A stretch of DNA of 64,000 bases, from the sequence record NC_055708.1; one strand, written 5' to 3'. Under the pieces are notes generated by a model. The model was not told the origin of the DNA. It made no database searches and saw only the letters and a program-made list of their open reading frames with translations. Shown here piece by piece: positions 6,593 to 60,677 of the stretch (within the stretch, counting starts at the first letter, position 1; every line of letters begins with the position of its first letter). Source of the DNA: Enterobacteria phage ATK47. The position numbers and the translations under genes were made by a program.

Positions 6593-7135
6593 ATGAGAAA
6601 AGCACTACTCGCTGGTCTATTTGCTCTTTCATTATCAGCACATAGCTCCGAGCATACTTTTAGTAATGTCCAACTCGATAACTTGAATTATGCTTATCAG
6701 TTTGGGGAACAGTTTTCTAAGGATGGAAAATTTAAAACGCATGAAAATATGCATAAGAAAGGACTTGGATACATAATGGCCGCAATACTATGGCAGGAAT
6801 CATCTGCTGGTATTAATCTTAAAGATAAGAAAGGTCACCATGCGTATGGAATGTTCCAAAATTATCTACCAACAATGAGGGCAAGAATTAACCAGCTTGG
6901 TTATAATATGACTGATGCCCAAATTAAGAAAATGCTATCTAAGCGGTCTAATTCAACCAGATGGGCTTATATCGAATTTTCTTATTGGTTAAATATACAT
7001 AATGGGGATATAAGAAAAGCTATATCCTCATACAATGCGGGATGGAAGACAAGTGCTGGAAGTAAATATGCTTCTGAAGTCCTAGAAAAGGCTAATTACC
7101 TTAAATCAAATAAACTACTGGAAATAAAAGAATGA
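6593..7135 (+). CDS. Secreted lytic-transglycosylase-like protein (SLT domain)
   Basis: Signal peptide; E-S ... GMFQ ... YNAG motifs typical of lytic transglycosylases. Confidence 0.55.
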   Translation: MRKALLAGLFALSLSAHSSEHTFSNVQLDNLNYAYQFGEQFSKDGKFKTHENMHKKGLGYIMAAILWQESSAGINLKDKKGHHAYGMFQNYLPTMRARINQLGYNMTDAQIKKMLSKRSNSTRWAYIEFSYWLNIHNGDIRKAISSYNAGWKTSAGSKYASEVLEKANYLKSNKLLEIKE

Positions 7136-7479
7136 CCAAAATGTTAGCTTTAATAGTTGGCTTGGTTTCATTTAACGCTCTTGCTAATACTACATATACT
7201 GATGTAACGGAGTATACAAACAGAACGGCGTCTGATTATTGTGGTAAAAGTCAAGAGTGTAAAGTAGATTTTTCACAAAAATTGTTATATGCGTATAAAG
7301 ACGGAGAAAAAGATGGGGCGTCTAGTAGGTTCAAGGCGTCTACCTTAATTAAAAGATACTATAAAAAATGGCAAATATTAGAATGCTCGGTGGCGGAACC
7401 TAAAGATAAGGCAGCATGCAATTCTATGGTGGACCGCCTAGTTGACTCTTATACTAGAGGACTTGCAGCAAGTGATTAA
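7132..7479 (+). CDS. Hypothetical secreted protein, 115 aa
   Basis: N-terminal signal-like segment; ATGA overlap. Confidence 0.45.
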   Translation: MTKMLALIVGLVSFNALANTTYTDVTEYTNRTASDYCGKSQECKVDFSQKLLYAYKDGEKDGASSRFKASTLIKRYYKKWQILECSVAEPKDKAACNSMVDRLVDSYTRGLAASD

Positions 7480-13086: not shown

Positions 13087-14088
13087 ATGAGTAAATTGGA
13101 GAATAAAATGTTCAACGTTCAAATCAAAAAAGGTATCTATCGTAATAACGAAATCTCTGGTTCTTATGTTGCCACAAAGACATGGTTCCCGGCAAAGCTT
13201 AATCCTGAATGTTCCCACTTAGGTGATGGTAAAATTTTCGTTATGATTGATGGTTCTGAACGTGGAGTATGGGTCTTCAAATCAGACATCGTAATGGAAG
13301 GAGTTGAGACGTCACCAGTTGCAGTTGTTGAAAGCACTGAAGATATGAAAACTCGTATCAACAAACGCTTTAAAGTAATGAACATGATGACGAATGGCAT
13401 TATTGATGGCAAAATTCGTTCACTCATTATTTCAGGTGCAGCTGGTATTGGTAAGACGTATTCTCTGGATAAAGCACTTAATAATGCTAATGATAATGGT
13501 TTCATCAAATACAAAAGCATTAATGGTAAAATCTCCGGTATTGGCCTTTACGAACAACTTTGGCTCAACCGTGATGAAGACAGCGTTCTCTTAATCGATG
13601 ACGTTGACGTATTCTCAGATATGGACATCCTGAACCTTCTTAAAGCAGCATTAGATACCGGAGATAAACGCAAAGTTTGTTGGAGCACTGCGTCATCTTA
13701 TCTCGAGGATAAGGGTATTGATAAAGAATTTGAGTTTGAAGGTACTATCGTTTTCATTACAAACGTTGATATCGATAAAGAGTTAGAACGGGGTTCGAAA
13801 CTTGCTCCACACCTTCAAGCTTTAGTATCTCGTTCAGTGTATCTCGACCTTGGAGTACACTCTAATGAAGAGATTATGGTTCGAGTTGAAGATGTAATAT
13901 TATCTACTGATATGATGCAGAAACGTGGCTTGACTGATGCTGAAACGTATAAAGCATTGTCCTGGATGAAGGCTAATGTATCTCGTCTTCGCAATGTATC
14001 ATTACGTACGGCTCTTTATGTAGCAGATTTTATTTCAACCGATAAAGATGGTTGGGAGGAAATCTCCGAAGTAACTTTACTGAAATAA
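13087..14088 (+). CDS. P-loop NTPase (AAA-like ATPase)
   Basis: Walker A GAAGIGKT and Walker B LLIDDVD. Confidence 0.55.
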   Translation: MSKLENKMFNVQIKKGIYRNNEISGSYVATKTWFPAKLNPECSHLGDGKIFVMIDGSERGVWVFKSDIVMEGVETSPVAVVESTEDMKTRINKRFKVMNMMTNGIIDGKIRSLIISGAAGIGKTYSLDKALNNANDNGFIKYKSINGKISGIGLYEQLWLNRDEDSVLLIDDVDVFSDMDILNLLKAALDTGDKRKVCWSTASSYLEDKGIDKEFEFEGTIVFITNVDIDKELERGSKLAPHLQALVSRSVYLDLGVHSNEEIMVRVEDVILSTDMMQKRGLTDAETYKALSWMKANVSRLRNVSLRTALYVADFISTDKDGWEEISEVTLLK

Positions 14089-14225: not shown

Positions 14226-14513
14226 ATGGATTTTATGCAAAAAATTAAAGCCGCAGTCGAACTCTATGCTCATCGTATGGTTAGTTCTACGATGCAATAT
14301 AGCGAGGAGGTTCGCCAGGACTCTTCCTTGAAAGGAAAAACTAAAGCCTTAATTACCTTAGATCGTTTGCAAAAGAATGCCATAGAGATGCTCCAGTACG
14401 ACAAGGGTGTATATAAGAAAGAACAGGAAGAGAAACTTAAATCTGAAAAATTACAAAAAATCCCGAAGTCGGTTTGGTTCAGTGGAAAAAATACCGAAAA
14501 AAGTTTCTTTTAG
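14226..14513 (+). CDS. Hypothetical protein
   Basis: ORF. Confidence 0.4.
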   Translation: MDFMQKIKAAVELYAHRMVSSTMQYSEEVRQDSSLKGKTKALITLDRLQKNAIEMLQYDKGVYKKEQEEKLKSEKLQKIPKSVWFSGKNTEKSFF

Positions 14514-14515
14514 TT

Positions 14516-14549
14516 GTTTACAAGGTCTATGGTTATGTTATTATAGACC
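14516..14549 (+). promoter_or_regulatory. Early promoter-stem-loop (GTTTAC, TATTAT; inverted repeat aggtctat/atagacct)
   Basis: Read directly. Confidence 0.55.
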
Positions 14550-14571
14550 TATCAACTACTGGAGGTAAAAC

Positions 14572-15099
14572 ATGAACGCTAAAGATATTTTCAACCTGGT
14601 AAATTATAACGACGGTAAATTTAAATCTGAAGCACAAAGCAAGTTCTTTAATGACGTTGCTTATGGTAACGAGATTACCGTAGATGGAGGTCAGATTTTC
14701 AAATCTCGCTGGAATTGGATTGTTATCATCGATTCAGTTGGAATTGTGGAAGTCTACAAAAACACTAACAAAAACCGTACATTATTCTGGTCTCGTGAAA
14801 CTAACGAGCAGTACAAAAAGGATAAAGCATCTCGTTTATCCAAAGTAACCCAGGAAGATATCGAGTTTATTAAGAAAGATATCGAGATGTACGAAAATTT
14901 AATCGCTGAAGACCAGGCAGTACTCGATAAGTTTGATGAAATTAAAGCTTCTCGTGAAATCCCTGACTTCATGAAAGAAACAGTAAACGAACGATACGCT
15001 CTCACTTCAGAACGTATTGCAAACTATACAAAACAGAAAGCAGAACGTATTAGTACTCTTCGGAAATTTGAAGAACGTTTAAAGACGGTTCACGCATAA
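14572..15099 (+). CDS. Hypothetical protein, 175 aa
   Basis: ORF with SD. Confidence 0.45.
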   Translation: MNAKDIFNLVNYNDGKFKSEAQSKFFNDVAYGNEITVDGGQIFKSRWNWIVIIDSVGIVEVYKNTNKNRTLFWSRETNEQYKKDKASRLSKVTQEDIEFIKKDIEMYENLIAEDQAVLDKFDEIKASREIPDFMKETVNERYALTSERIANYTKQKAERISTLRKFEERLKTVHA

Positions 15100-15161
15100 A
15101 CGCTTTACCCAAGGACGGGTTATAATGGTTTTGAGTTCCAATTCAATCTGAGGAAATAGTT

Positions 15162-16157
15162 ATGAGCATTACATCTGATGCGATAAAACATGAAATTAAC
15201 GGTTTATGTGCTTCACAGATTAAAGTGTGGTTTAAAGACCATAATGATCGCAGAGCGCTTAATTATGAACGAATTGCTATCCAAGTTCATCAATTACTGG
15301 TTAGTAAATTTGATTTTCATATGCCGTCTGAAATCTATACTAATCTACCGCGAGCGCTTATTAAAGCGTGTAAAGGCTACGGAAAATCAATGGCTGACGG
15401 AATCTTCAGCGCGCTGAATAAACTTAACGTTCTGTCGATGATTAACTCTAACAATATCCTGCGTAATCTAGGACGTACTGATTTGTTCGGTCGTGAACAG
15501 TGTAAAATGCCTTTGAAACGGATTGTTGCTCATCTTAACGAGAACCAAACACGTTTTATGGCCGTAACAGCACGTTTACAAATGGGCCTAGATCGTCAGA
15601 TGAACTTTAAAACTCATCCACGTTATTCAGGTTCAACAGACTTTTATAAATGTGAGCTTCAAAAGGTTGGTGGTAAAACTGTCTTAGTAGTTCGTGTAAC
15701 GTTTGAAGGACGACGTCAAGGATATTTTGACATAATCGGCTCTGGTCTTAAACATTGTGGATTTATCGACGAAGTTGATATCAAGCGAGACGGCATTGGA
15801 TACCGTATTGGGTATGTTTGTACTCTTAAAGAAGAGATTTCAGGACCAGCTCCAGGACTAAAAGACGTTAGATATAAAGACGAGCTCGTTGAAGAAATAA
15901 AAGAAGTTGAATATGATATCAACCAAGAAGATGCTCTTAAAGACCTTATTGATGAACTGAACCAAGATGTTATTCCTGTTCAGAAATTTGAATCAAAACA
16001 TGCTGAGCAAATCAAATACTTTGAAGCTTTGATTAACGAACTTAATGTAACTATTCAACAGACTGACGATGAAATCTCACGATTAGCAGGCTTAAACGGT
16101 AAAAATAAAACAGAACGAGCTAATCTTATTCAAGTAGTAAAACTTCTTAAGGAATGA
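15162..16157 (+). CDS. Hypothetical protein with C-terminal coiled coil
   Basis: ORF; heptad-like C-terminal ~80 aa. Confidence 0.5.
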   Translation: MSITSDAIKHEINGLCASQIKVWFKDHNDRRALNYERIAIQVHQLLVSKFDFHMPSEIYTNLPRALIKACKGYGKSMADGIFSALNKLNVLSMINSNNILRNLGRTDLFGREQCKMPLKRIVAHLNENQTRFMAVTARLQMGLDRQMNFKTHPRYSGSTDFYKCELQKVGGKTVLVVRVTFEGRRQGYFDIIGSGLKHCGFIDEVDIKRDGIGYRIGYVCTLKEEISGPAPGLKDVRYKDELVEEIKEVEYDINQEDALKDLIDELNQDVIPVQKFESKHAEQIKYFEALINELNVTIQQTDDEISRLAGLNGKNKTERANLIQVVKLLKE

Positions 16158-16186
16158 TGTACAACCAAGGATGGTTGGAGTATAAT
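16157..16186 (+). promoter_or_regulatory. Conserved early promoter copy (aTGTACaaccaaggatggttggagTATAAT)
   Basis: Near-identical 30-bp unit also at 17177, 59176, 59733. Confidence 0.6.
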
Positions 16187-16212
16187 AAATTTTTCAACAT
16201 GAGGAATATAAA

Positions 16213-17172
16213 ATGGCTTTTATTACACGTAGAGAACTTATCAAAGAATTTACCTCGAACGCATATACTCCAGGACCTAATCCTATCCGTATGCCTGTAA
16301 AGACTCCTGAAGAGATTGAGGAAATCTGTTCATATTATGGGATTACTTCTCGTATGTTTACCCAATTTGAATGCGTTACTAACACACCCGTTAAAGAGTT
16401 CATTAAAAATGGTGAGTTCAGCCGTTTATTGGCCAAACAGAAACTTCGTAATTTTTGTATTGGCGGTGAAGGTCAATATTTCGCTAAGCAGTTCCGGAAT
16501 AACCTTAACAATCTGATGGCCATTGCTTCTCGTATTCGTCCTCAAGCAATTAACATGAAACATTTGAAATATACTTACGATAAGTTAGAAATCATGGTTA
16601 TCAGTGAGAACGAGTTCACTCTTACGTATAAACCTAAGAATGATAACGTTGCTCGTGTATTCCACCAAGCGTTGGAAGTTTTAGGTGATAATATCCACCA
16701 GATTAAAGCAATTTATTCTCGTGAGCTTAATATTATCGACCCTATCAAGAATAAGGGCCATATCGCTATCCAGGCTCGTGTATCTATTGGTAAAAAGGTT
16801 CCTGCACCATGGTGGCACAAAGACTCTGAATATTATCAAAATCTTAAAAAGGAAAATGCAACATTTGAAGCGTCAATTACTGCAACCCCAATTGGTAATG
16901 CTGAAGTTCTAGGTTCATATTCTACTTCGGGTAAATCAATGTTTAAAGGTTTGCCAAATGTGTGCAAACTGTCTGCAGTAAAACTAAATGTTTCTAATGA
17001 CCTTCTTCCGGTCGAAGATTACCATTACAATCAAATCAAGGCCACTATGGACCAACTGTCTGTTGAACTTGACAAAGCACAAGCTAAGCTTCGTGATGCT
17101 CAAAGTGTTGTAACGAATCTCCAGTTGCAGTACTCTAAACTTTTTAACGCAATGAATGCATTAAAATCATAA
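16213..17172 (+). CDS. Hypothetical protein with C-terminal coiled coil
   Basis: ORF. Confidence 0.5.
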   Translation: MAFITRRELIKEFTSNAYTPGPNPIRMPVKTPEEIEEICSYYGITSRMFTQFECVTNTPVKEFIKNGEFSRLLAKQKLRNFCIGGEGQYFAKQFRNNLNNLMAIASRIRPQAINMKHLKYTYDKLEIMVISENEFTLTYKPKNDNVARVFHQALEVLGDNIHQIKAIYSRELNIIDPIKNKGHIAIQARVSIGKKVPAPWWHKDSEYYQNLKKENATFEASITATPIGNAEVLGSYSTSGKSMFKGLPNVCKLSAVKLNVSNDLLPVEDYHYNQIKATMDQLSVELDKAQAKLRDAQSVVTNLQLQYSKLFNAMNALKS

Positions 17173-17176
17173 AACG

Positions 17177-17206
17177 GTTTACAACCAAGGACGGTTGGAG
17201 TATAAT
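17177..17206 (+). promoter_or_regulatory. Conserved early promoter copy (GTTTACaaccaaggacggttggagTATAAT)
   Basis: Read directly. Confidence 0.6.
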
Positions 17207-17234
17207 GAATCTATCTTAACGAGAGGAAAATATT

Positions 17235-18185
17235 ATGACACGTTCACATTACATTGAATACTTTGCCGGGCTTATCGCTAACGTTCATGCTCAGCGCGCT
17301 ACTGGTGCACTAGGATTTGATGTTCCACACCGAGATGTAGTAAGTGGTATTCTTCGCGATTTTGGTACATACACAGGCCAAGAAAATCATATCTGTAAAG
17401 ATACTCAAAATGCATATTCTCATTCATTAGGGACGCTGCTTCAATGGTTCAAACGTTCTCGTTTATTATCTTCTACTGTAGCTCGCGATAACATTAAAAA
17501 CTTTATGAAGCCGAGCTTTATTAAATCTGTGACATCTAAAACCGATTTGGTTGAATTCACTATTGTTAATGATGTTAAAAAGACTCATTTGGCTGATTGG
17601 TTATCTACCATTCCTGAAACTAAATTTGCTGATAAATTTGCTTGTGAATTCAATAACCAAGTGAATATGCTTTTTAAACATTCTCGTAAATTATTCACGG
17701 GCGGTGATGGTCGTACAAATAAAGTTCATGTTAAAGATTGGGTTACTGCAGTATTCAAACCGACCGGTAATGGTAACGCATCATTATCAATTGATATCCA
17801 GGTTCCTTATTACTACTCACGTAATCTCGGTACCATGAAAGCCGAAGAAATTAATAAGCACAACAAAACCGTTCGTTCATTGTCTTATAAACTTATTACA
17901 TTGTTAGAGACTATGGATGTTGTTGAAACGTTCGACGAATCCGAAGATAACGGTTCAATGTTATACAGTTCTCGTACCAGAATTAAGCTGAAGAACCCTA
18001 ACGAGTATAAACTTAAGACTATTAAAGAACCTAAAGTAGAAAAAGTTGACAACTTGAGCGAAGAACGTGAATACCTCAAATCTCGTCTGAAAGAAGTCGA
18101 AGCCCAGATTAAAGAACAAACTAAATCGTTAAAAGCTCTTAATGCGAAAGCGGATGGTTTACGAAATGCCATTGAGGTTTTATAA
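17235..18185 (+). CDS. Hypothetical protein with C-terminal coiled coil
   Basis: ORF. Confidence 0.5.
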   Translation: MTRSHYIEYFAGLIANVHAQRATGALGFDVPHRDVVSGILRDFGTYTGQENHICKDTQNAYSHSLGTLLQWFKRSRLLSSTVARDNIKNFMKPSFIKSVTSKTDLVEFTIVNDVKKTHLADWLSTIPETKFADKFACEFNNQVNMLFKHSRKLFTGGDGRTNKVHVKDWVTAVFKPTGNGNASLSIDIQVPYYYSRNLGTMKAEEINKHNKTVRSLSYKLITLLETMDVVETFDESEDNGSMLYSSRTRIKLKNPNEYKLKTIKEPKVEKVDNLSEEREYLKSRLKEVEAQIKEQTKSLKALNAKADGLRNAIEVL

Positions 18186-18490
18186 TGAAACTACGTCTTT
18201 TAGAGGATATTGATATGAACACTAATCACAGCTTGGTTAAGTTTATTGACGATAGTTCAAAGATTGAATTTGTTCAGCGAGATAAAATCCACGGTGAAGA
18301 AGAGTTCGTTCCTCCAGCATGGAACGAAATCATGAAAATGGTTGAACGACGTGAAAATGCTGCCAAATCGGCAGCAAAACACCCATGTCCGGAATGTGGA
18401 ACTATCCAAGTCCAACTGGTTAACTGGACCACTGATAACTTGAAATTGAAATGCCGTAAATGCTTCCACAATTTTGAGAGAACATTATAA
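18185..18490 (+). CDS. Zinc-ribbon protein
   Basis: CPECG...CRKC pairs. Confidence 0.45.
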   Translation: MKLRLLEDIDMNTNHSLVKFIDDSSKIEFVQRDKIHGEEEFVPPAWNEIMKMVERRENAAKSAAKHPCPECGTIQVQLVNWTTDNLKLKCRKCFHNFERTL

Positions 18491-18903
18491 TGAGATATAG
18501 CCTTCGTTGTTTTATCGCAGCTTTAGTTTTTGCTATTATTCCATTCATTTGGAACAGCCAGAATACTTACATGGAAACTAAAGTAATTCCTGTGGAGGTA
18601 GTGGAATTAATCTCAGGACAATCTACAGGAAAATATTCTAAATTGGAATTTATTGCAGTCTATAAAGATGAGCAAGGACGAGTTTTTGACAGGCGTGTAT
18701 CGCCATCGTTTTATACGCTTCTGAATAAAGGTGATACGATAGCTATAGAAATTCGTGAGATGGATATCAAACAAACTACTAAAGATAACTTGATTTGGTT
18801 CTTTGGTACAGTGTTGTTGGTTTCTATCTGTATCACAGGTTTTATTACATGTATTGTATTTGGCGTTGCATATTTAATCGATGAAAGGAAAAATAATGTT
18901 TAA
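18490..18903 (+). CDS. Hypothetical membrane protein
   Basis: Hydrophobic N- and C-terminal helices. Confidence 0.4.
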   Translation: MRYSLRCFIAALVFAIIPFIWNSQNTYMETKVIPVEVVELISGQSTGKYSKLEFIAVYKDEQGRVFDRRVSPSFYTLLNKGDTIAIEIREMDIKQTTKDNLIWFFGTVLLVSICITGFITCIVFGVAYLIDERKNNV

Positions 18904-19159
18904 AGTGTACGGGTACGACTCTACTATTCATAAATGCATTTATTGCGATAATGCGAAACGATTGCTGACTGTTAAGAAACAGCCATTCGAATTCATTAAT
19001 GTTATGCCGGAAAAAGGTGTTTTTGATGATGAGAAAATTGCTGAGCTTCTGGCTAAGCTTGGACGTGAAACACATGTTGGATTGACGATGCCTCAGGTGT
19101 TTGCTCCTGACGGAAGTCACATTGGTGGATTTGACCAACTACGAGAATATTTTAAATGA
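18896..19159 (+). CDS. nrdC: Glutaredoxin/thioredoxin NrdC
   Basis: MFKVYGYDS..HKC.YCDNAKRLL matches T4 NrdC as recalled. Confidence 0.95.
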   Translation: MFKVYGYDSTIHKCIYCDNAKRLLTVKKQPFEFINVMPEKGVFDDEKIAELLAKLGRETHVGLTMPQVFAPDGSHIGGFDQLREYFK

Positions 19160-51010: not shown

Positions 51011-52033
51011 ATGGCTGAATGGATAGATAATGAATTTGCTTATCGTGCGTTTTCTCACCTCCCTCGTTTTAGACAAATCAATAATTCAAGCACATTTAAA
51101 TTAACGTTTCGTTGTCCAGTTTGTGGCGACTCTCAGACAGATGCAATGAAAGCCCGCGGATGGTATTATGGTGGTACTCCAGGTAATGTGCATTGCTATA
51201 ACTGTCAGTATCATAATACAATTTCCGGATACTTAAAAGAGTATGATGAAGAGCTTTATCGCGAGTATCTAATGGAAGTTCGTAAAGAAAAAGTTAGAAT
51301 GGAACCAAAGATTGAAAAGGTTCCTGAACATAAACCAGAACCGGAGAAAAAGACTATAAATTCTTTGCCGTCTTGTTCTCGTCTGGACAAGCTGCCTGAA
51401 GAGCATCCTATTGTGAAATATGTTAAGTCTCGGTGTATTCCTAAAGAATCGTGGAACAGATTATGGTTCACATTAGAATGGCCTAAATTGGTCAACAAGA
51501 TTCAACCTGGTACGTATAAGAAAGAGATTCCCGAGCCACGTTTAGTGATTCCTATTTTTAATAAAGATGGGAAGGCCGAGTCATTCCAAGGACGTGCACT
51601 TCGTAAAGATGCTCCTCAGAAATATATCACTATTAAAGCGTTTGAGTCTGCAACAAAAATTTATGGTGTTGAACGTGTTAAGGAAGGAGACGTCTGGGTA
51701 ATGGAAGGCCCTATTGATAGTTTATTCATACCCAATGCAATCGCTATTACAGGCGGCTCAATAGATTTAGATGTGGTACCATTTAAAGAACGTCGGGTAT
51801 GGGTAATGGATAATGAACCTAGGCATCCAGATACTATAGCTCGCATGAAGCGATTAGTTGATGCAGGCGAACGTGTCATGTTCTGGGACCGAGCTCCGTG
51901 GAGTTCAAAGGATGTGAATGATATGGTAATGAAAGAAAATGCAACACCACAAGAAATTTTAGAATATATGAAACAGAATATTTCAAGTGGGTTGCATGCT
52001 AAAATGAGATTATCTCGTTATTCGAAGATTTAA
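51011..52033 (+). CDS. 61: DNA primase gp61
   Basis: Zinc ribbon CPVCGDS...CYNC; strong similarity to T4 gp61 as recalled. Confidence 0.95.
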   Translation: MAEWIDNEFAYRAFSHLPRFRQINNSSTFKLTFRCPVCGDSQTDAMKARGWYYGGTPGNVHCYNCQYHNTISGYLKEYDEELYREYLMEVRKEKVRMEPKIEKVPEHKPEPEKKTINSLPSCSRLDKLPEEHPIVKYVKSRCIPKESWNRLWFTLEWPKLVNKIQPGTYKKEIPEPRLVIPIFNKDGKAESFQGRALRKDAPQKYITIKAFESATKIYGVERVKEGDVWVMEGPIDSLFIPNAIAITGGSIDLDVVPFKERRVWVMDNEPRHPDTIARMKRLVDAGERVMFWDRAPWSSKDVNDMVMKENATPQEILEYMKQNISSGLHAKMRLSRYSKI

Positions 52034-52227
52034 ACAAGCCCTATAATAGCAAAGGCCAAATCAACTACAGTATCCAACGGAACAGAAGGAACTATAATAC
52101 CATGGGCAACTAACAACGGTGCAATCCCGAAGTTCCATGAAATAATGCCACCTACAACTATTGCGGCGATAGCAGTTTTCTTTTTATTGCCTTTAATAGC
52201 GTTGATTAACGATGGAAGTTTAAACAT
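52030..52227 (-). CDS. Small membrane protein on the minus strand
   Basis: Minus-strand ORF preceded by AAGGAG 7 nt before its ATG; hydrophobic; convergent with gene 61. Confidence 0.4.
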   Translation of the reverse strand: MFKLPSLINAIKGNKKKTAIAAIVVGGIISWNFGIAPLLVAHGIIVPSVPLDTVVDLAFAIIGLV

Positions 52228-59175: not shown

Positions 59176-59205
59176 GTTTACAACCAAGGATGGTTGGAGT
59201 ATAAT
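59176..59205 (+). promoter_or_regulatory. Conserved early promoter copy (GTTTACaaccaaggatggttggagTATAAT)
   Basis: Identical to the 16157 copy. Confidence 0.6.
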
Positions 59206-59235
59206 CTTTCTATCTTAACCAAACAGGAAAACATT

Positions 59236-59730
59236 ATGAATATCAATACCACGGCTACTTACATCCTGAAAGATGAAAAACAAATCAACTGGTACGGTGC
59301 TTCAGTGCGAGCTTATGAAAAGTTTTGTGAAATTTTAGGTGCCACTCAAGGTAATAGTTTCACTATTGTTAACTTCATCAAACAAGTTGAAGGCCCTTGG
59401 TTATTCTTAGAAATTAAAAATTCATATGGTACAATTTCTACTACCGCCCTTCCAAGCACCGACTTTGAACTGTTGATTGAAGAAGTAGAACCTGTTAAAG
59501 ACATCTGTATTGATATGGATATCGCTTGTATGTATGGTACTCTGATTAAGCCTATTGAGCCTACTGATTTGTTGTGTAAATATGTTTCAATTCGACGACC
59601 ATTCGCTGGTCCAGTAAATGGATGGGTAACTGATCAGTGGATTGAAGACGGTGTTGAACTTCTGAACGTTGTTCATGCAGGTGATTTTAGTGTAGTTCCA
59701 CGTAGTGCTGTGGTTAATATCCTTAATTAA
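59236..59730 (+). CDS. Paralog family member 1
   Basis: Shares C-terminal W(V/I)EDG..L.N.V..G.F.VV with the next two genes. Confidence 0.45.
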   Translation: MNINTTATYILKDEKQINWYGASVRAYEKFCEILGATQGNSFTIVNFIKQVEGPWLFLEIKNSYGTISTTALPSTDFELLIEEVEPVKDICIDMDIACMYGTLIKPIEPTDLLCKYVSIRRPFAGPVNGWVTDQWIEDGVELLNVVHAGDFSVVPRSAVVNILN

Positions 59731-59732
59731 TG

Positions 59733-59762
59733 TTGTACATCCAAGGACGGATGGAGTATAAT
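59733..59762 (+). promoter_or_regulatory. Conserved early promoter copy (TTGTACatccaaggacggatggagTATAAT)
   Basis: Variant of the 30-bp unit. Confidence 0.55.
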
Positions 59763-59792
59763 GAATTCAACTTAAACAAAGAGAGAGAAATT

Positions 59793-60248
59793 ATGATTAC
59801 TATTGGTGAAATTAAGCGTGTATCGTCTGCATCTCGTTCTAAAGCTGCAGGTCGTCTAGTTGAAGTGGTAGGACTTCGTACTAATGGTACTGGTCGTGTT
59901 AAAGAAGTTAAAGTTCGAATCATTCCTAGTTCTGGAAAAACTGAAACTCAGTACGCTTACGTAAGTCCTAAATTCTTGGAAACTCATGTGAGCGCTCATT
60001 TTGCTTCTACTGAACCCAATGTACAGTTCAAATGGGCCCTTTGCAAAGGTGTTGAATTCCAGACTGATAAAGAATTTGACTTCATCGATGAATACGGTTA
60101 TCCAAACAAAACTGATATTATGTGTGGCTTCATTAGTGACCAATGGGTTGAAGATGGTGAAAAGTTATACAATATCGTATTCTTAGGTGACTTCCGAGTT
60201 GTTAAAGAATCTGAAATCACTCGCTATGTATCTCCTCGTAAAGCTTAA
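59793..60248 (+). CDS. Paralog family member 2
   Basis: SASRSKAAGRLVEV...FISDQWVEDGEKLYNIVFLGDF. Confidence 0.45.
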   Translation: MITIGEIKRVSSASRSKAAGRLVEVVGLRTNGTGRVKEVKVRIIPSSGKTETQYAYVSPKFLETHVSAHFASTEPNVQFKWALCKGVEFQTDKEFDFIDEYGYPNKTDIMCGFISDQWVEDGEKLYNIVFLGDFRVVKESEITRYVSPRKA

Positions 60249-60257
60249 GGAATTATT

Positions 60258-60677
60258 ATGAATATTGTAAATCTCTCTATTGGTGATTACGTACACGTAT
60301 CGGATGCTTCTCGCTCTAAAGTTGCTGGTAAGTTGGTTGAAGTTCTTTATGTAAGTGATCCTGCTTTTGGTCGCAATGAAGTTAAAGTTCGTGATGCTGA
60401 TGGCAACATTGGTTACGTTAAAAGCCAATTCATTGAACCAGAAGAAAAAGCGTTCAAATGGAAACTATGCAGGTCTGTTTTAGTTGTAAAAGACCATGAA
60501 TTTACTATTGATGCTGCAACTGATGGAACGCCATGGAAAACTAAGCAAATAGCCGGATTTATTAGCGACCGTTGGGTAGAAGATGGTGTTAAGCTTTATA
60601 ACATCGTTTTCGCTGGACAGTTCATGGTAGTTCCTGAGTTCCAAATCAAAAAATATTGTCCAGCATCTTTTGCATAA
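60258..60677 (+). CDS. Paralog family member 3
   Basis: ASRSKVAGKLVEV...FISDRWVEDGVKLYNIVFAGQF. Confidence 0.45.
   Translation: MNIVNLSIGDYVHVSDASRSKVAGKLVEVLYVSDPAFGRNEVKVRDADGNIGYVKSQFIEPEEKAFKWKLCRSVLVVKDHEFTIDAATDGTPWKTKQIAGFISDRWVEDGVKLYNIVFAGQFMVVPEFQIKKYCPASFA

Follow-up and report, generated by a model that had tools for sequence, protein, structure and literature searches.

The window analyzed here, a stretch of 64,000 nucleotides (nt) of Enterobacteria phage ATK47 (NC_055708.1), carries three consecutive genes, hereafter A, B, and C. They correspond to nrdC.6, nrdC.5, and nrdC.3, early genes of the T-even phages, in the form found in Mosigvirus (the RB69 group). Most likely, they are ancient tandem duplicates of one gene, and we propose that these early accessory genes serve to neutralize host immune proteins, an explanation that we favor on balance. 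The gene families had already been catalogued and the anti-defense role of one member published, and the genes do not constitute a new kind of system; what appear to be new are the probable common origin of NrdC.3, NrdC.4, NrdC.5, and NrdC.6 and the family-specific conservation of their tails.

Family assignment and proposed counter-defense role

As the original prediction had it, three consecutive open reading frames (ORFs) of about 320 amino acids (aa) start at positions 15162, 16213, and 17235; they encode proteins of 331, 319, and 316 aa, all on the plus strand, and a GAGG Shine-Dalgarno sequence lies 7 to 10 nt ahead of each ATG. Protein A matched phrog_2257 over its full length (residues 1 to 331; E value, 3e-126) and T4 NrdC.6 with 29% identity (BLASTP E value, 5e-19). 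Its cluster relatives carry PF26899, and tblastn retrieved 740 phage records, all T-even-like, with query coverages of 92 to 100% on Tequatrovirus nrdC.6 genes. Protein B matched the DUF7235 model PF23882 far above the Pfam gathering score of 30 bits taken as the membership cutoff, its residues 15 to 318 aligning with model positions 1 to 307 (405.5 bits; E value, 2e-121). T4 NrdC.5 (420.6 bits; E value, 5e-126) and gp086 of the Dhakavirus VR5 (395.9 bits) matched the same model over their full lengths, and B shares 26% identity over 308 aa with T4 NrdC.5 (BLASTP E value, 1e-11). Protein C is 56% identical to T4 NrdC.3 over 316 aa (BLASTP E value, 1e-118), matched phrog_1435 (E value, 6e-102), and also aligned with T4 NrdC.4 (BLASTP E value, 5e-5).

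Records of the three families (159 to 740 for each) came from enterobacterial T-even phages only, namely Tequatrovirus, Mosigvirus, Dhakavirus, and their close relatives. Sequence searches for homologs returned close relatives only (4 to 34 per query), and an exhaustive HMMER search of 1.84 billion representative proteins with the NrdC.3 profile retrieved only 7. No enzyme domain was found in A, B, or C with Pfam or NCBIfam, no related solved structure was found among the PDB sequences, and the Rfam, NCBIfam, and PDB sequence searches gave no matches. The family alignments likewise revealed no conserved catalytic-type motif.

The functional evidence comes from T4. Evolved T4 clones without this region are viable and fail to plate on ECOR17, disruption of dsr1 in ECOR17 restores their plating, and plasmid-borne T4 nrdC.5, described as an early gene, restores plating of the deletion mutant on MG1655 carrying dsr1 from ECOR17, Dsr1 being a SIR2 defense (PMC9391042). 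Since the family of B has a T4 member that counteracts Dsr1, all three proteins are candidate anti-immunity proteins. We infer that anti-Dsr1 activity may be conserved in B, and A and C may have an anti-defense role as well; no function of NrdC.3, NrdC.4, or NrdC.6 was reported in the literature searched. The suggestion in the original prediction of a family of host-takeover or anti-defense proteins thus agrees with the early accessory character of the genes and with the placement of B in the NrdC.5/DUF7235 family, whose T4 member overcomes Dsr1 (PMC9391042), and is borne out for that one member only.

Several known systems can be set beside B. Like T4 NrdC.5, B lies on the same Pfam model over its full length, is flanked by NrdC.6-type and NrdC.4/3-type genes, and has a C-terminal helix ending ...KL.NA.NAL. 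In contrast, the two proteins are only 26 to 31% identical, B lacks insertions of about 20 and 19 residues found in the Tequatrovirus form, and its N-terminal 30 residues are its own; moreover, T4 nrdC.5 has no promoter cassette of its own, its start lying 10 nt beyond the end of nrdC.6 (as restored for the frameshift), whereas B has its own cassette. A functional analogy can also be drawn with DSAD1, described in two reports as a small protein of phage origin that binds a SIR2-domain NADase defense and thereby blocks it (PMC10973363, PMC10981675). However, DSAD1 comes from another phage group and targets DSR2 rather than Dsr1, binding was shown for DSAD1 and would be expected by extension for NrdC.5, and the likeness drawn here is one of function only. 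In addition, the T4 "anti-TA island" (dmd, tifA, and adfA; PMC9391042) and the locus of Gp49.2 (PMC13096335) resemble this array in being clustered small early accessory genes that each neutralize a different host defense. T6 gene 49.2, about 1 kb downstream, encodes an inhibitor of the OLD defense (PMC13096335), and the Gp49.2 locus occupies this position relative to the same array in T-even phages. The genes of those loci are not reported as paralogs of each other, whereas NrdC.3 to NrdC.6 appear to be.

Alternatively, the three proteins could be paralogous takeover proteins directed against housekeeping host machinery (transcription, nucleotide metabolism, or proteolysis), the effect of T4 NrdC.5 on Dsr1 being indirect. 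Core functions of the host are the targets of many T4 early proteins, and the array lies among the nucleotide-metabolism genes nrdC, nrdD, nrdG, and nrdH and beside pin, the adjacent locus that encodes the Lon inhibitor Pin; the way in which NrdC.5 overcomes Dsr1 was not reported in the literature searched. However, the families have a narrow enterobacterial T-even range, and the content of the array varies, being nrdC.6-5-3 in Mosigvirus, nrdC.6-5-4-3 in Tequatrovirus, and nrdC.6-5-4 in Dhakavirus, with nrdC.6 lost in Pinarejo and most of nrdC.5, nrdC.4, and nrdC.3 lost in ACG-C40. Between genera, NrdC.5 and NrdC.6 retain 21 to 32% identity (NrdC.3 and NrdC.4, 44 to 56%). Such a combination of narrow range, copy variation, and divergence is seen more typically in arms-race genes than in factors acting on conserved host machinery. 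T4 without the region also grows normally on laboratory strains and fails only on a Dsr1-carrying host (PMC9391042), and we consider housekeeping targets unlikely.

Relationship among the NrdC.3 to NrdC.6 families

The N-terminal domains of the three proteins had been described as not obviously alike. This held at the BLAST level, at which no pair scored better than an E value of 0.3, and hhalign comparison of shallow alignments (effective number of sequences [Neff], about 1.6) gave only a weak match between the tails of B and C. Profile comparisons, however, indicate remote homology. For these, family alignments were built from 19 phage loci of three genera, with 7 viral-contig loci and 10 GenBank phage regions among the sources, and compared with hhalign. 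The NrdC.3 and NrdC.4 profiles matched over 208 columns (probability, 97.5%; E value, 6.5e-12), and the NrdC.3 profile retrieved NrdC.4 (P0062) at an E value of 5e-6 among 1.84 billion proteins; judged by these alignments, the two families are clear paralogs. Two other matches of this profile were set aside. A T4-type NrdC.5 (exhaustive HMMER E value, 3.8e-9) was an artifact caused by the presence in the query alignment of P0056, in which NrdC.5 is naturally fused to NrdC.3, and an 800-aa repetitive protein, P0063 (E value, 3e-4), was judged spurious.

The remaining family pairs gave weak collinear matches on one motif pair (E values, 0.005 to 0.07), h..h K...h S.hh....L.NF followed by F...F(R/N).N...hh..A.(R/K)L, as against 0.1 to 0.8 in comparisons with NrdC.10 and NrdC.11; with the unrelated neighbors NrdC.8, NrdC.10, and NrdC.11 as hhalign controls, E values ranged from 0.025 to 0.8. 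The signal grew as profiles were merged. NrdC.5 matched the merged NrdC.3 and NrdC.4 profile with E values of 1.9e-4 to 3.7e-4 over 72 to 101 collinear columns (reversed templates, 0.46 to 0.58), and NrdC.6 matched the merge of NrdC.3, NrdC.4, and NrdC.5 with an E value of 1.5e-3 (reversed, 0.38). When NrdC.5 and NrdC.6 were merged and compared with NrdC.3 and NrdC.4, the match reached 96% probability and an E value of 2.3e-9 over 225 columns running into the tail. Control merges of NrdC.5 with the unrelated NrdC.10 or NrdC.11 remained at about 1e-4, indicating that NrdC.6 adds a concordant signal of about five orders of magnitude. NrdC.8, an early protein with a helical C terminus, was considered as a short member of the family and rejected (hhalign E values, 0.04 to 0.5).

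Taken as a test for a single superfamily, homology ahead of the tail is therefore strong for NrdC.3 and NrdC.4 (6.5e-12), probable for NrdC.5 (1.9e-4 to 3.7e-4), and borderline for NrdC.6 (1.5e-3 to 0.17). The profile alignment proposed in the original prediction, when extended to merged profiles, places NrdC.5 with NrdC.3 and NrdC.4 (about 2e-4) and NrdC.6 more weakly so. From these profiles, we infer one superfamily that would include NrdC.5 and, less securely, NrdC.6. Homology of B and C is very probable, and we hold it likely, with less assurance, that A is homologous to both.

In the AlphaFold2 models of A and C, built from separate family alignments, the elements follow one another in a common order: the N terminus consists of four or five helices, the motif helix lies near residue 130, and a beta-hairpin or sheet, one more helix, and a hairpin then lead through a linker into the tail helices. 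The structure prediction proposed earlier thus recovered the tail helices and a common order of elements and left the core at low confidence. In searches of BFVD, the models matched orthologs and uncharacterized proteins of about 300 to 370 aa from other T4-like phages (Serratia PS2, Enterobacter IME523, Pectobacterium PM2, and Acinetobacter Acj61). The model of A matched E5EYP0 (E value, 7.7e-5) and that of C matched E5EYP1 (E value, 2e-3); these consecutive UniProt accessions probably denote adjoining genes of another T4-like phage, which hints at a similar tandem array outside the T-even group. PDB fold matches to H-NOX (E value, about 0.01; root mean square deviation, about 19 Å) and weak YbjN-like matches were not used.

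A number of observations weigh against reading the three genes as duplicated immune antagonists. In pairwise hhalign comparisons, NrdC.6 reached E values of only 0.015 to 0.17, profile-sequence hmmsearch gave 0.018 to 7, and an hmmsearch of the family hidden Markov models against 526 background ORFs yielded no significant cross-family match. Without the last 60 residues, the merged comparison gave an E value of only 0.005 (null, 0.15), suggesting that the strong signal may stem in part from coiled-coil composition. The AlphaFold2 models have mean predicted local distance difference test (pLDDT) scores of 54 and 48.5, with low confidence in the alpha/beta core, and fold searches of BFVD and the PDB provided no convincing cross-link between the families. 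The cassette ahead of A is shortened and was not scored as a promoter in the sigma-70 scan, leaving A without an intact cassette. On the functional side, published evidence concerns T4 NrdC.5 only (PMC9391042), to which B is only 26% identical, and no mechanism of T4 NrdC.5 was reported in the literature searched.

Some of these results would also be expected if A, B, and C had no common origin, that is, if they were unrelated early proteins with unrelated functions that each independently acquired a C-terminal amphipathic helix, as is common in small phage proteins. The lack of pairwise BLAST similarity, the restriction of the shallow-profile signal to the tails, the nonsignificant cross-family hmmsearch values, and the weakening of the best profile match to 0.005 upon tail removal all fit separate origins, as does the assignment of the proteins to three different PHROGs and three different Pfam accessions. 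Nevertheless, the cross-family matches are collinear, involve the same motif pair, and become stronger as profiles are merged, whereas reversed or unrelated controls stay between 0.02 and 0.9; NrdC.3 and NrdC.4 are demonstrably paralogs, and the proteins share the same length, the same predicted order of elements, and tandem positions. Separate origins are thus about as improbable as housekeeping targets. The collinear alignment ahead of the tail, the common element order in A and C, and the lack of any DNA repeat except the cassette argue instead for an old duplication of whole genes followed by divergence.

Heptad tails and promoter cassettes

The heptad-rich C-terminal segments were analyzed with an in-house register-aware scan (28-residue window) against 300 whole-protein shuffles, taking the 99th percentile of the shuffled maxima as the threshold. 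As anticipated, heptad helices were found in all three proteins (z scores of 3.6, 3.7, and 5.8 for A, B, and C), and a second segment of C, residues 204 to 231, also exceeded the threshold; no segment of NrdC.8, NrdC.9, NrdC.10, or NrdC.2 did so in the same scan. Since they exceed the shuffled controls, the tails are real, and they span 30 to 50 aa (4 to 7 heptads) rather than the 70 to 90 aa first proposed. Helices of at least four heptads free of Pro and Gly are found at residues 269 to 319 of B and 267 to 316 of C, in which the hydrophobic 3-4 spacing is uninterrupted over six heptads (in B, I275 M279 L282 L286 A289 L293 A296 V300 L303 Y307 L310 M314 L317), and in A only at residues 281 to 310, where the pattern ends at a conserved Gly-rich turn followed by a short terminal amphipathic helix. 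Consistently, AlphaFold2 predicts a single tail helix in C (residues 275 to 315; block-mean pLDDT, 69 to 81) and broken tail helices in A (residues 273 to 294, 302 to 308, and 316 to 330).

Within families, the last 45 residues were the best-conserved segment between genera in five of six comparisons (47 to 71% identity, versus 28 to 56% overall), the exception being B versus Dhakavirus gp086. For A, tail identity to Tequatrovirus and Dhakavirus NrdC.6 is 53 to 58% (29 to 32% overall); for B, it is 47% to T4 NrdC.5 (28% overall); and for C, 71% to T4 NrdC.3 (56% overall). The first 60 residues and the linker after the core are the least conserved between genera. Between families, the tails are hardly alignable (tails-only E values, 1.7e-4 to 0.3; 0.035 even for the paralogs NrdC.3 and NrdC.4), and at the nucleotide level, a repeat comparison revealed no resemblance among the segments that encode the tails of A, B, and C. 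This conservation within, and not between, families suggests old duplicates under a family-specific tail constraint rather than a swapped shared module.

The original prediction of variable heads on a shared scaffold, in which unrelated heads would have been recombined onto one coiled-coil module with cassettes and tails as junctions, is very improbable. In its favor, no part of the proteins is better conserved within families than the tail, the genes lie between conserved cassettes in the manner of published PeSL shuffling elements (PMC4122927), and natural fusions exist (P0056 and the NrdC.5 and NrdC.3 remnants of ACG-C40). Against it, tails of different families resemble each other no more than the heads do, the tail-coding segments lack DNA similarity, the heads align collinearly with the same element order in A and C, no DNA repeat other than the cassette is present, and the fusions, one of which starts at an internal Met, look like deletion products and not functional swaps. 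In P0056, residues 146 to 274 of NrdC.5 are joined to residues 134 to 308 of NrdC.3 at a common N(K/Q)VN microhomology. ACG-C40 (locus 6805-7213) is left with a 71-aa start of NrdC.5 and the last 72 codons of NrdC.3, and Pinarejo (locus 7001-7135) is left with the last 45 codons of NrdC.6. In the reference T4 genome (NC_000866, around 51996-52150), the 275-aa NrdC.6 ends in an unrelated NNMMMKFSDYLD, and the 70 nt of "intergenic" DNA ahead of nrdC.5 retain, in a different frame, the codons for the conserved NrdC.6 tail FRLSGLSSKAKSEREKLIKIVDLLKS, indicating that T4 nrdC.6 is frameshifted relative to its relatives (295 aa). The uncharacterized early ORFs NrdC.3, NrdC.4, and NrdC.6 of T4 follow the genome order seen here; in contrast to T4, Mosigvirus lacks NrdC.4, nrdC.7 is relocated to the opposite side of the array, and in A an additional acidic stretch of about 35 residues is inserted ahead of the tail.

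Each gene had been placed behind its own copy of a 30-bp promoter unit. This is the case for B and C, which have near-identical cassettes, and A is preceded only by a shortened derivative in which TTTACC and TATAAT are separated by only 11 nt. In the window, the unit had three matches with at most three mismatches, versus none in 100 shuffles, and the copy ahead of C (17177-17206) is an exact match to the query unit; further copies lie at 59176-59205 and 59733-59762. The copy ahead of B and that at 17173-17215 form a 43-nt direct repeat (84% identity), the two cassette copies being the only substantial DNA repeat in the array region. A 29-nt DNA match between B and C (16446 and 17684) was noncollinear with the protein alignment and was treated as a chance match. 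By their hexamers, the cassettes of B and C are predicted sigma-70-type early promoters. They resemble the PeSL cassettes of T4-like phages in that conserved early-promoter units are repeated ahead of accessory ORFs in hyperplastic regions, each associated with a short hairpin (PMC4122927). The PeSL T4-group consensus TTTACW-N17-TAYWAT (PMC4122927) fits the C copy, nearly fits the B copy (TGTACA, with one -35 position off), and does not fit the form ahead of A with its 11-nt spacer. The cassettes differ from PeSLs in having the palindrome within the -35/-10 spacer and not as a separate stem-loop.

In the PeSL comparison, the cassette hairpins had energies of -6.2 to -6.6 kcal/mol, the CAACC-AAGGAC-GGTTG form ahead of C reaching -6.2 kcal/mol (z score, -2.2). 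The short form before A folds as an ACCC/GGGU hairpin (-4.9 kcal/mol) that was not significant (z score, -1.25); in T4 and VR5, too, the short form lies after nrdC.8, with the sequence TGGTATAAT and an extended -10. We also observed that the full-length variants each fold as a hairpin (-6.2 to -8.2 kcal/mol; z scores, about -2) and that, among the copies of the window, T4, and VR5, the palindrome keeps a constant AAGGA(C/T) core and its stem changes on both sides (CAACC/GGTTG, CATCC/GGATG, AGCC/GGCT, CCACA/TGTGG, and ACCC/GGGT), the stems sitting in different registers in different variants. In three full-length variants, GGAG and UAUAAU resemble, in read-through RNA, the RegB site GGAGRAYARAA (PMC1702504), a feature absent from the T4 nrdC.4 copy and the short form.

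Under the explanation that we favor, duplication and neutralization of immune proteins, the proteins would share an N-terminal helical region, the helix pair SRLL..(L)xNF ... F..F(R/N).N...L...A.R(L/I), a small alpha/beta core (strands, helix, and hairpin), a variable linker, and an amphipathic heptad helix ending L..A...L(K). The genes, dispensable accessory genes of a hyperplastic region, would be transcribed early from the sigma-70-type cassettes, and their products might bind and neutralize host immune proteins directly, in a nonenzymatic and stoichiometric manner. The fast-diverging body would recognize the target, and the conserved heptad tail may form a dimer or higher oligomer. By analogy with DSAD1 and DSR2, the family of B (NrdC.5/DUF7235) would be aimed at the SIR2-type NADase defense Dsr1, and A and C might be aimed at other systems or variants. 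More tentatively, and with rather less likelihood, nrdC.3 to nrdC.6 could be a diversifying multigene family of immune antagonists, in which an ancestral coiled-coil-tailed binder was duplicated and its copies were each retargeted to a different host defense (NrdC.5 to Dsr1), with the cassettes providing both independent early expression and recombination points for the gain, loss, and exchange of copies between T-even phages. Should both paralogy and counter-defense prove correct, the genome of each T-even phage would encode three or four candidate immune antagonists that are related to each other. As a target is known for one only (T4 NrdC.5), they would provide a short gene list to screen against E. 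coli defense systems, as well as a natural series for how one fold is retargeted, with a testable role for the conserved tail.

Genomic context and annotation

The features of the array are listed in Table 1. The region 14500-18600 is 100% identical to Enterobacteria phage ATK48 (genus Mosigvirus, Straboviridae) and 97 to 99% identical to many RB69-like phages, with 634 matching phage records, all T-even-like. The window has a GC content of 35 to 39%, nearly all of its genes lie on the plus strand, and only short ORFs (<100 aa) occur on the opposite strand across the array region. The array belongs to the "nrdC.x" block, which lies upstream of nrdC, the thioredoxin gene. The separate promoter of nrdC.8 (14517-14544) reads TTTACA-16-TATTAT, with a TG, and gene A may be cotranscribed or read from it.

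Table 1. Coordinates of the nrdC.6-5-3 array and its associated elements in the window
Feature	Position	Strand	Description
nrdC.8 and separate early promoter	14517..15099	+	Upstream of A; 84% identical to T4 NrdC.8
Shortened promoter/hairpin cassette	15102..15126	+	GCTTTACCCAAGGACGGGTTATAAT; downstream of nrdC.8, upstream of A
Gene A	15162..16157	+	331 aa; Mosigvirus-type NrdC.6 homolog (phrog_2257; precomputed Pfam PF26899)
Heptad-periodic segment of A	16002..16091	+	Residues 281-310, z 3.6; a break with Gly and a terminal amphipathic helix follow
Early-promoter cassette ahead of B (predicted)	16157..16186	+	-35 TGTACA, 17-nt spacer with palindrome CAACC-AAGGAT-GGTTG, GGAG, -10 TATAAT; 10/12 hexamer matches
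Gene B	16213..17172	+	319 aa; NrdC.5/DUF7235 (PF23882) family member
Heptad-periodic C-terminal helix of B	17017..17169	+	Residues 269-319, z 3.7
Early-promoter cassette ahead of C (predicted)	17177..17206	+	-35 TTTACA, 17-nt spacer with palindrome CAACC-AAGGAC-GGTTG, GGAG, -10 TATAAT; 11/12 hexamer matches
Gene C	17235..18185	+	316 aa; NrdC.3 homolog (phrog_1435; precomputed Pfam PF26897), paralog of NrdC.4
Heptad-periodic C-terminal helix of C	18033..18182	+	Residues 267-316, z 5.8

In every source consulted, these families are named "hypothetical," "DUF7235," or "thioredoxin." The last label, which ATK48 and many other GenBank and UniProt records give to all nrdC.x genes, can practically be discarded for A, B, and C, as none of them matches a thioredoxin-fold model of Pfam or NCBIfam or contains a CxxC motif; the true thioredoxin is NrdC (87 aa; 18896-19159), and the label derives from the locus name nrdC.N. 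Seven consecutive unrelated genes of the nrdC.1-nrdC.11 block are annotated as thioredoxin (e.g., in KT184310), evidently by spreading from the locus name, and the assignments given here would correct this widespread misannotation. The ATK48 record also places odd misc_features in gene A (a 10-nt "IS2" match and a "StbAB binding site"), which look like chance matches.

Several further observations concern the neighboring genes. At 18158-18187, within the last codons of C (GLRNAIEVL-stop), the scan found a promoter-like TTTACG-17-TATAAT (10/12 hexamer matches), and the ATG of nrdC.2 shares bases with the stop codon of C (TAATG), an overlap suggestive of translational coupling. NrdC.10 (13087-14088; 333 aa) gave weak matches to P-loop/AAA and STAND-type NTPases (E values, 3e-4 to 1e-2; below the Pfam cutoffs), has a possible C-terminal helix-turn-helix, and has its own promoter in most phages. 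Finally, the cassette copies at 59176 and 59733 front a second tandem array just after dexA (59194-60677), composed of three consecutive ORFs of about 140 to 170 aa. These share the C-terminal motif GF(I/V)(S/T)DQWVEDG..LYN(I/V)VF.GDF.VV and, by this motif, look like paralogs too.

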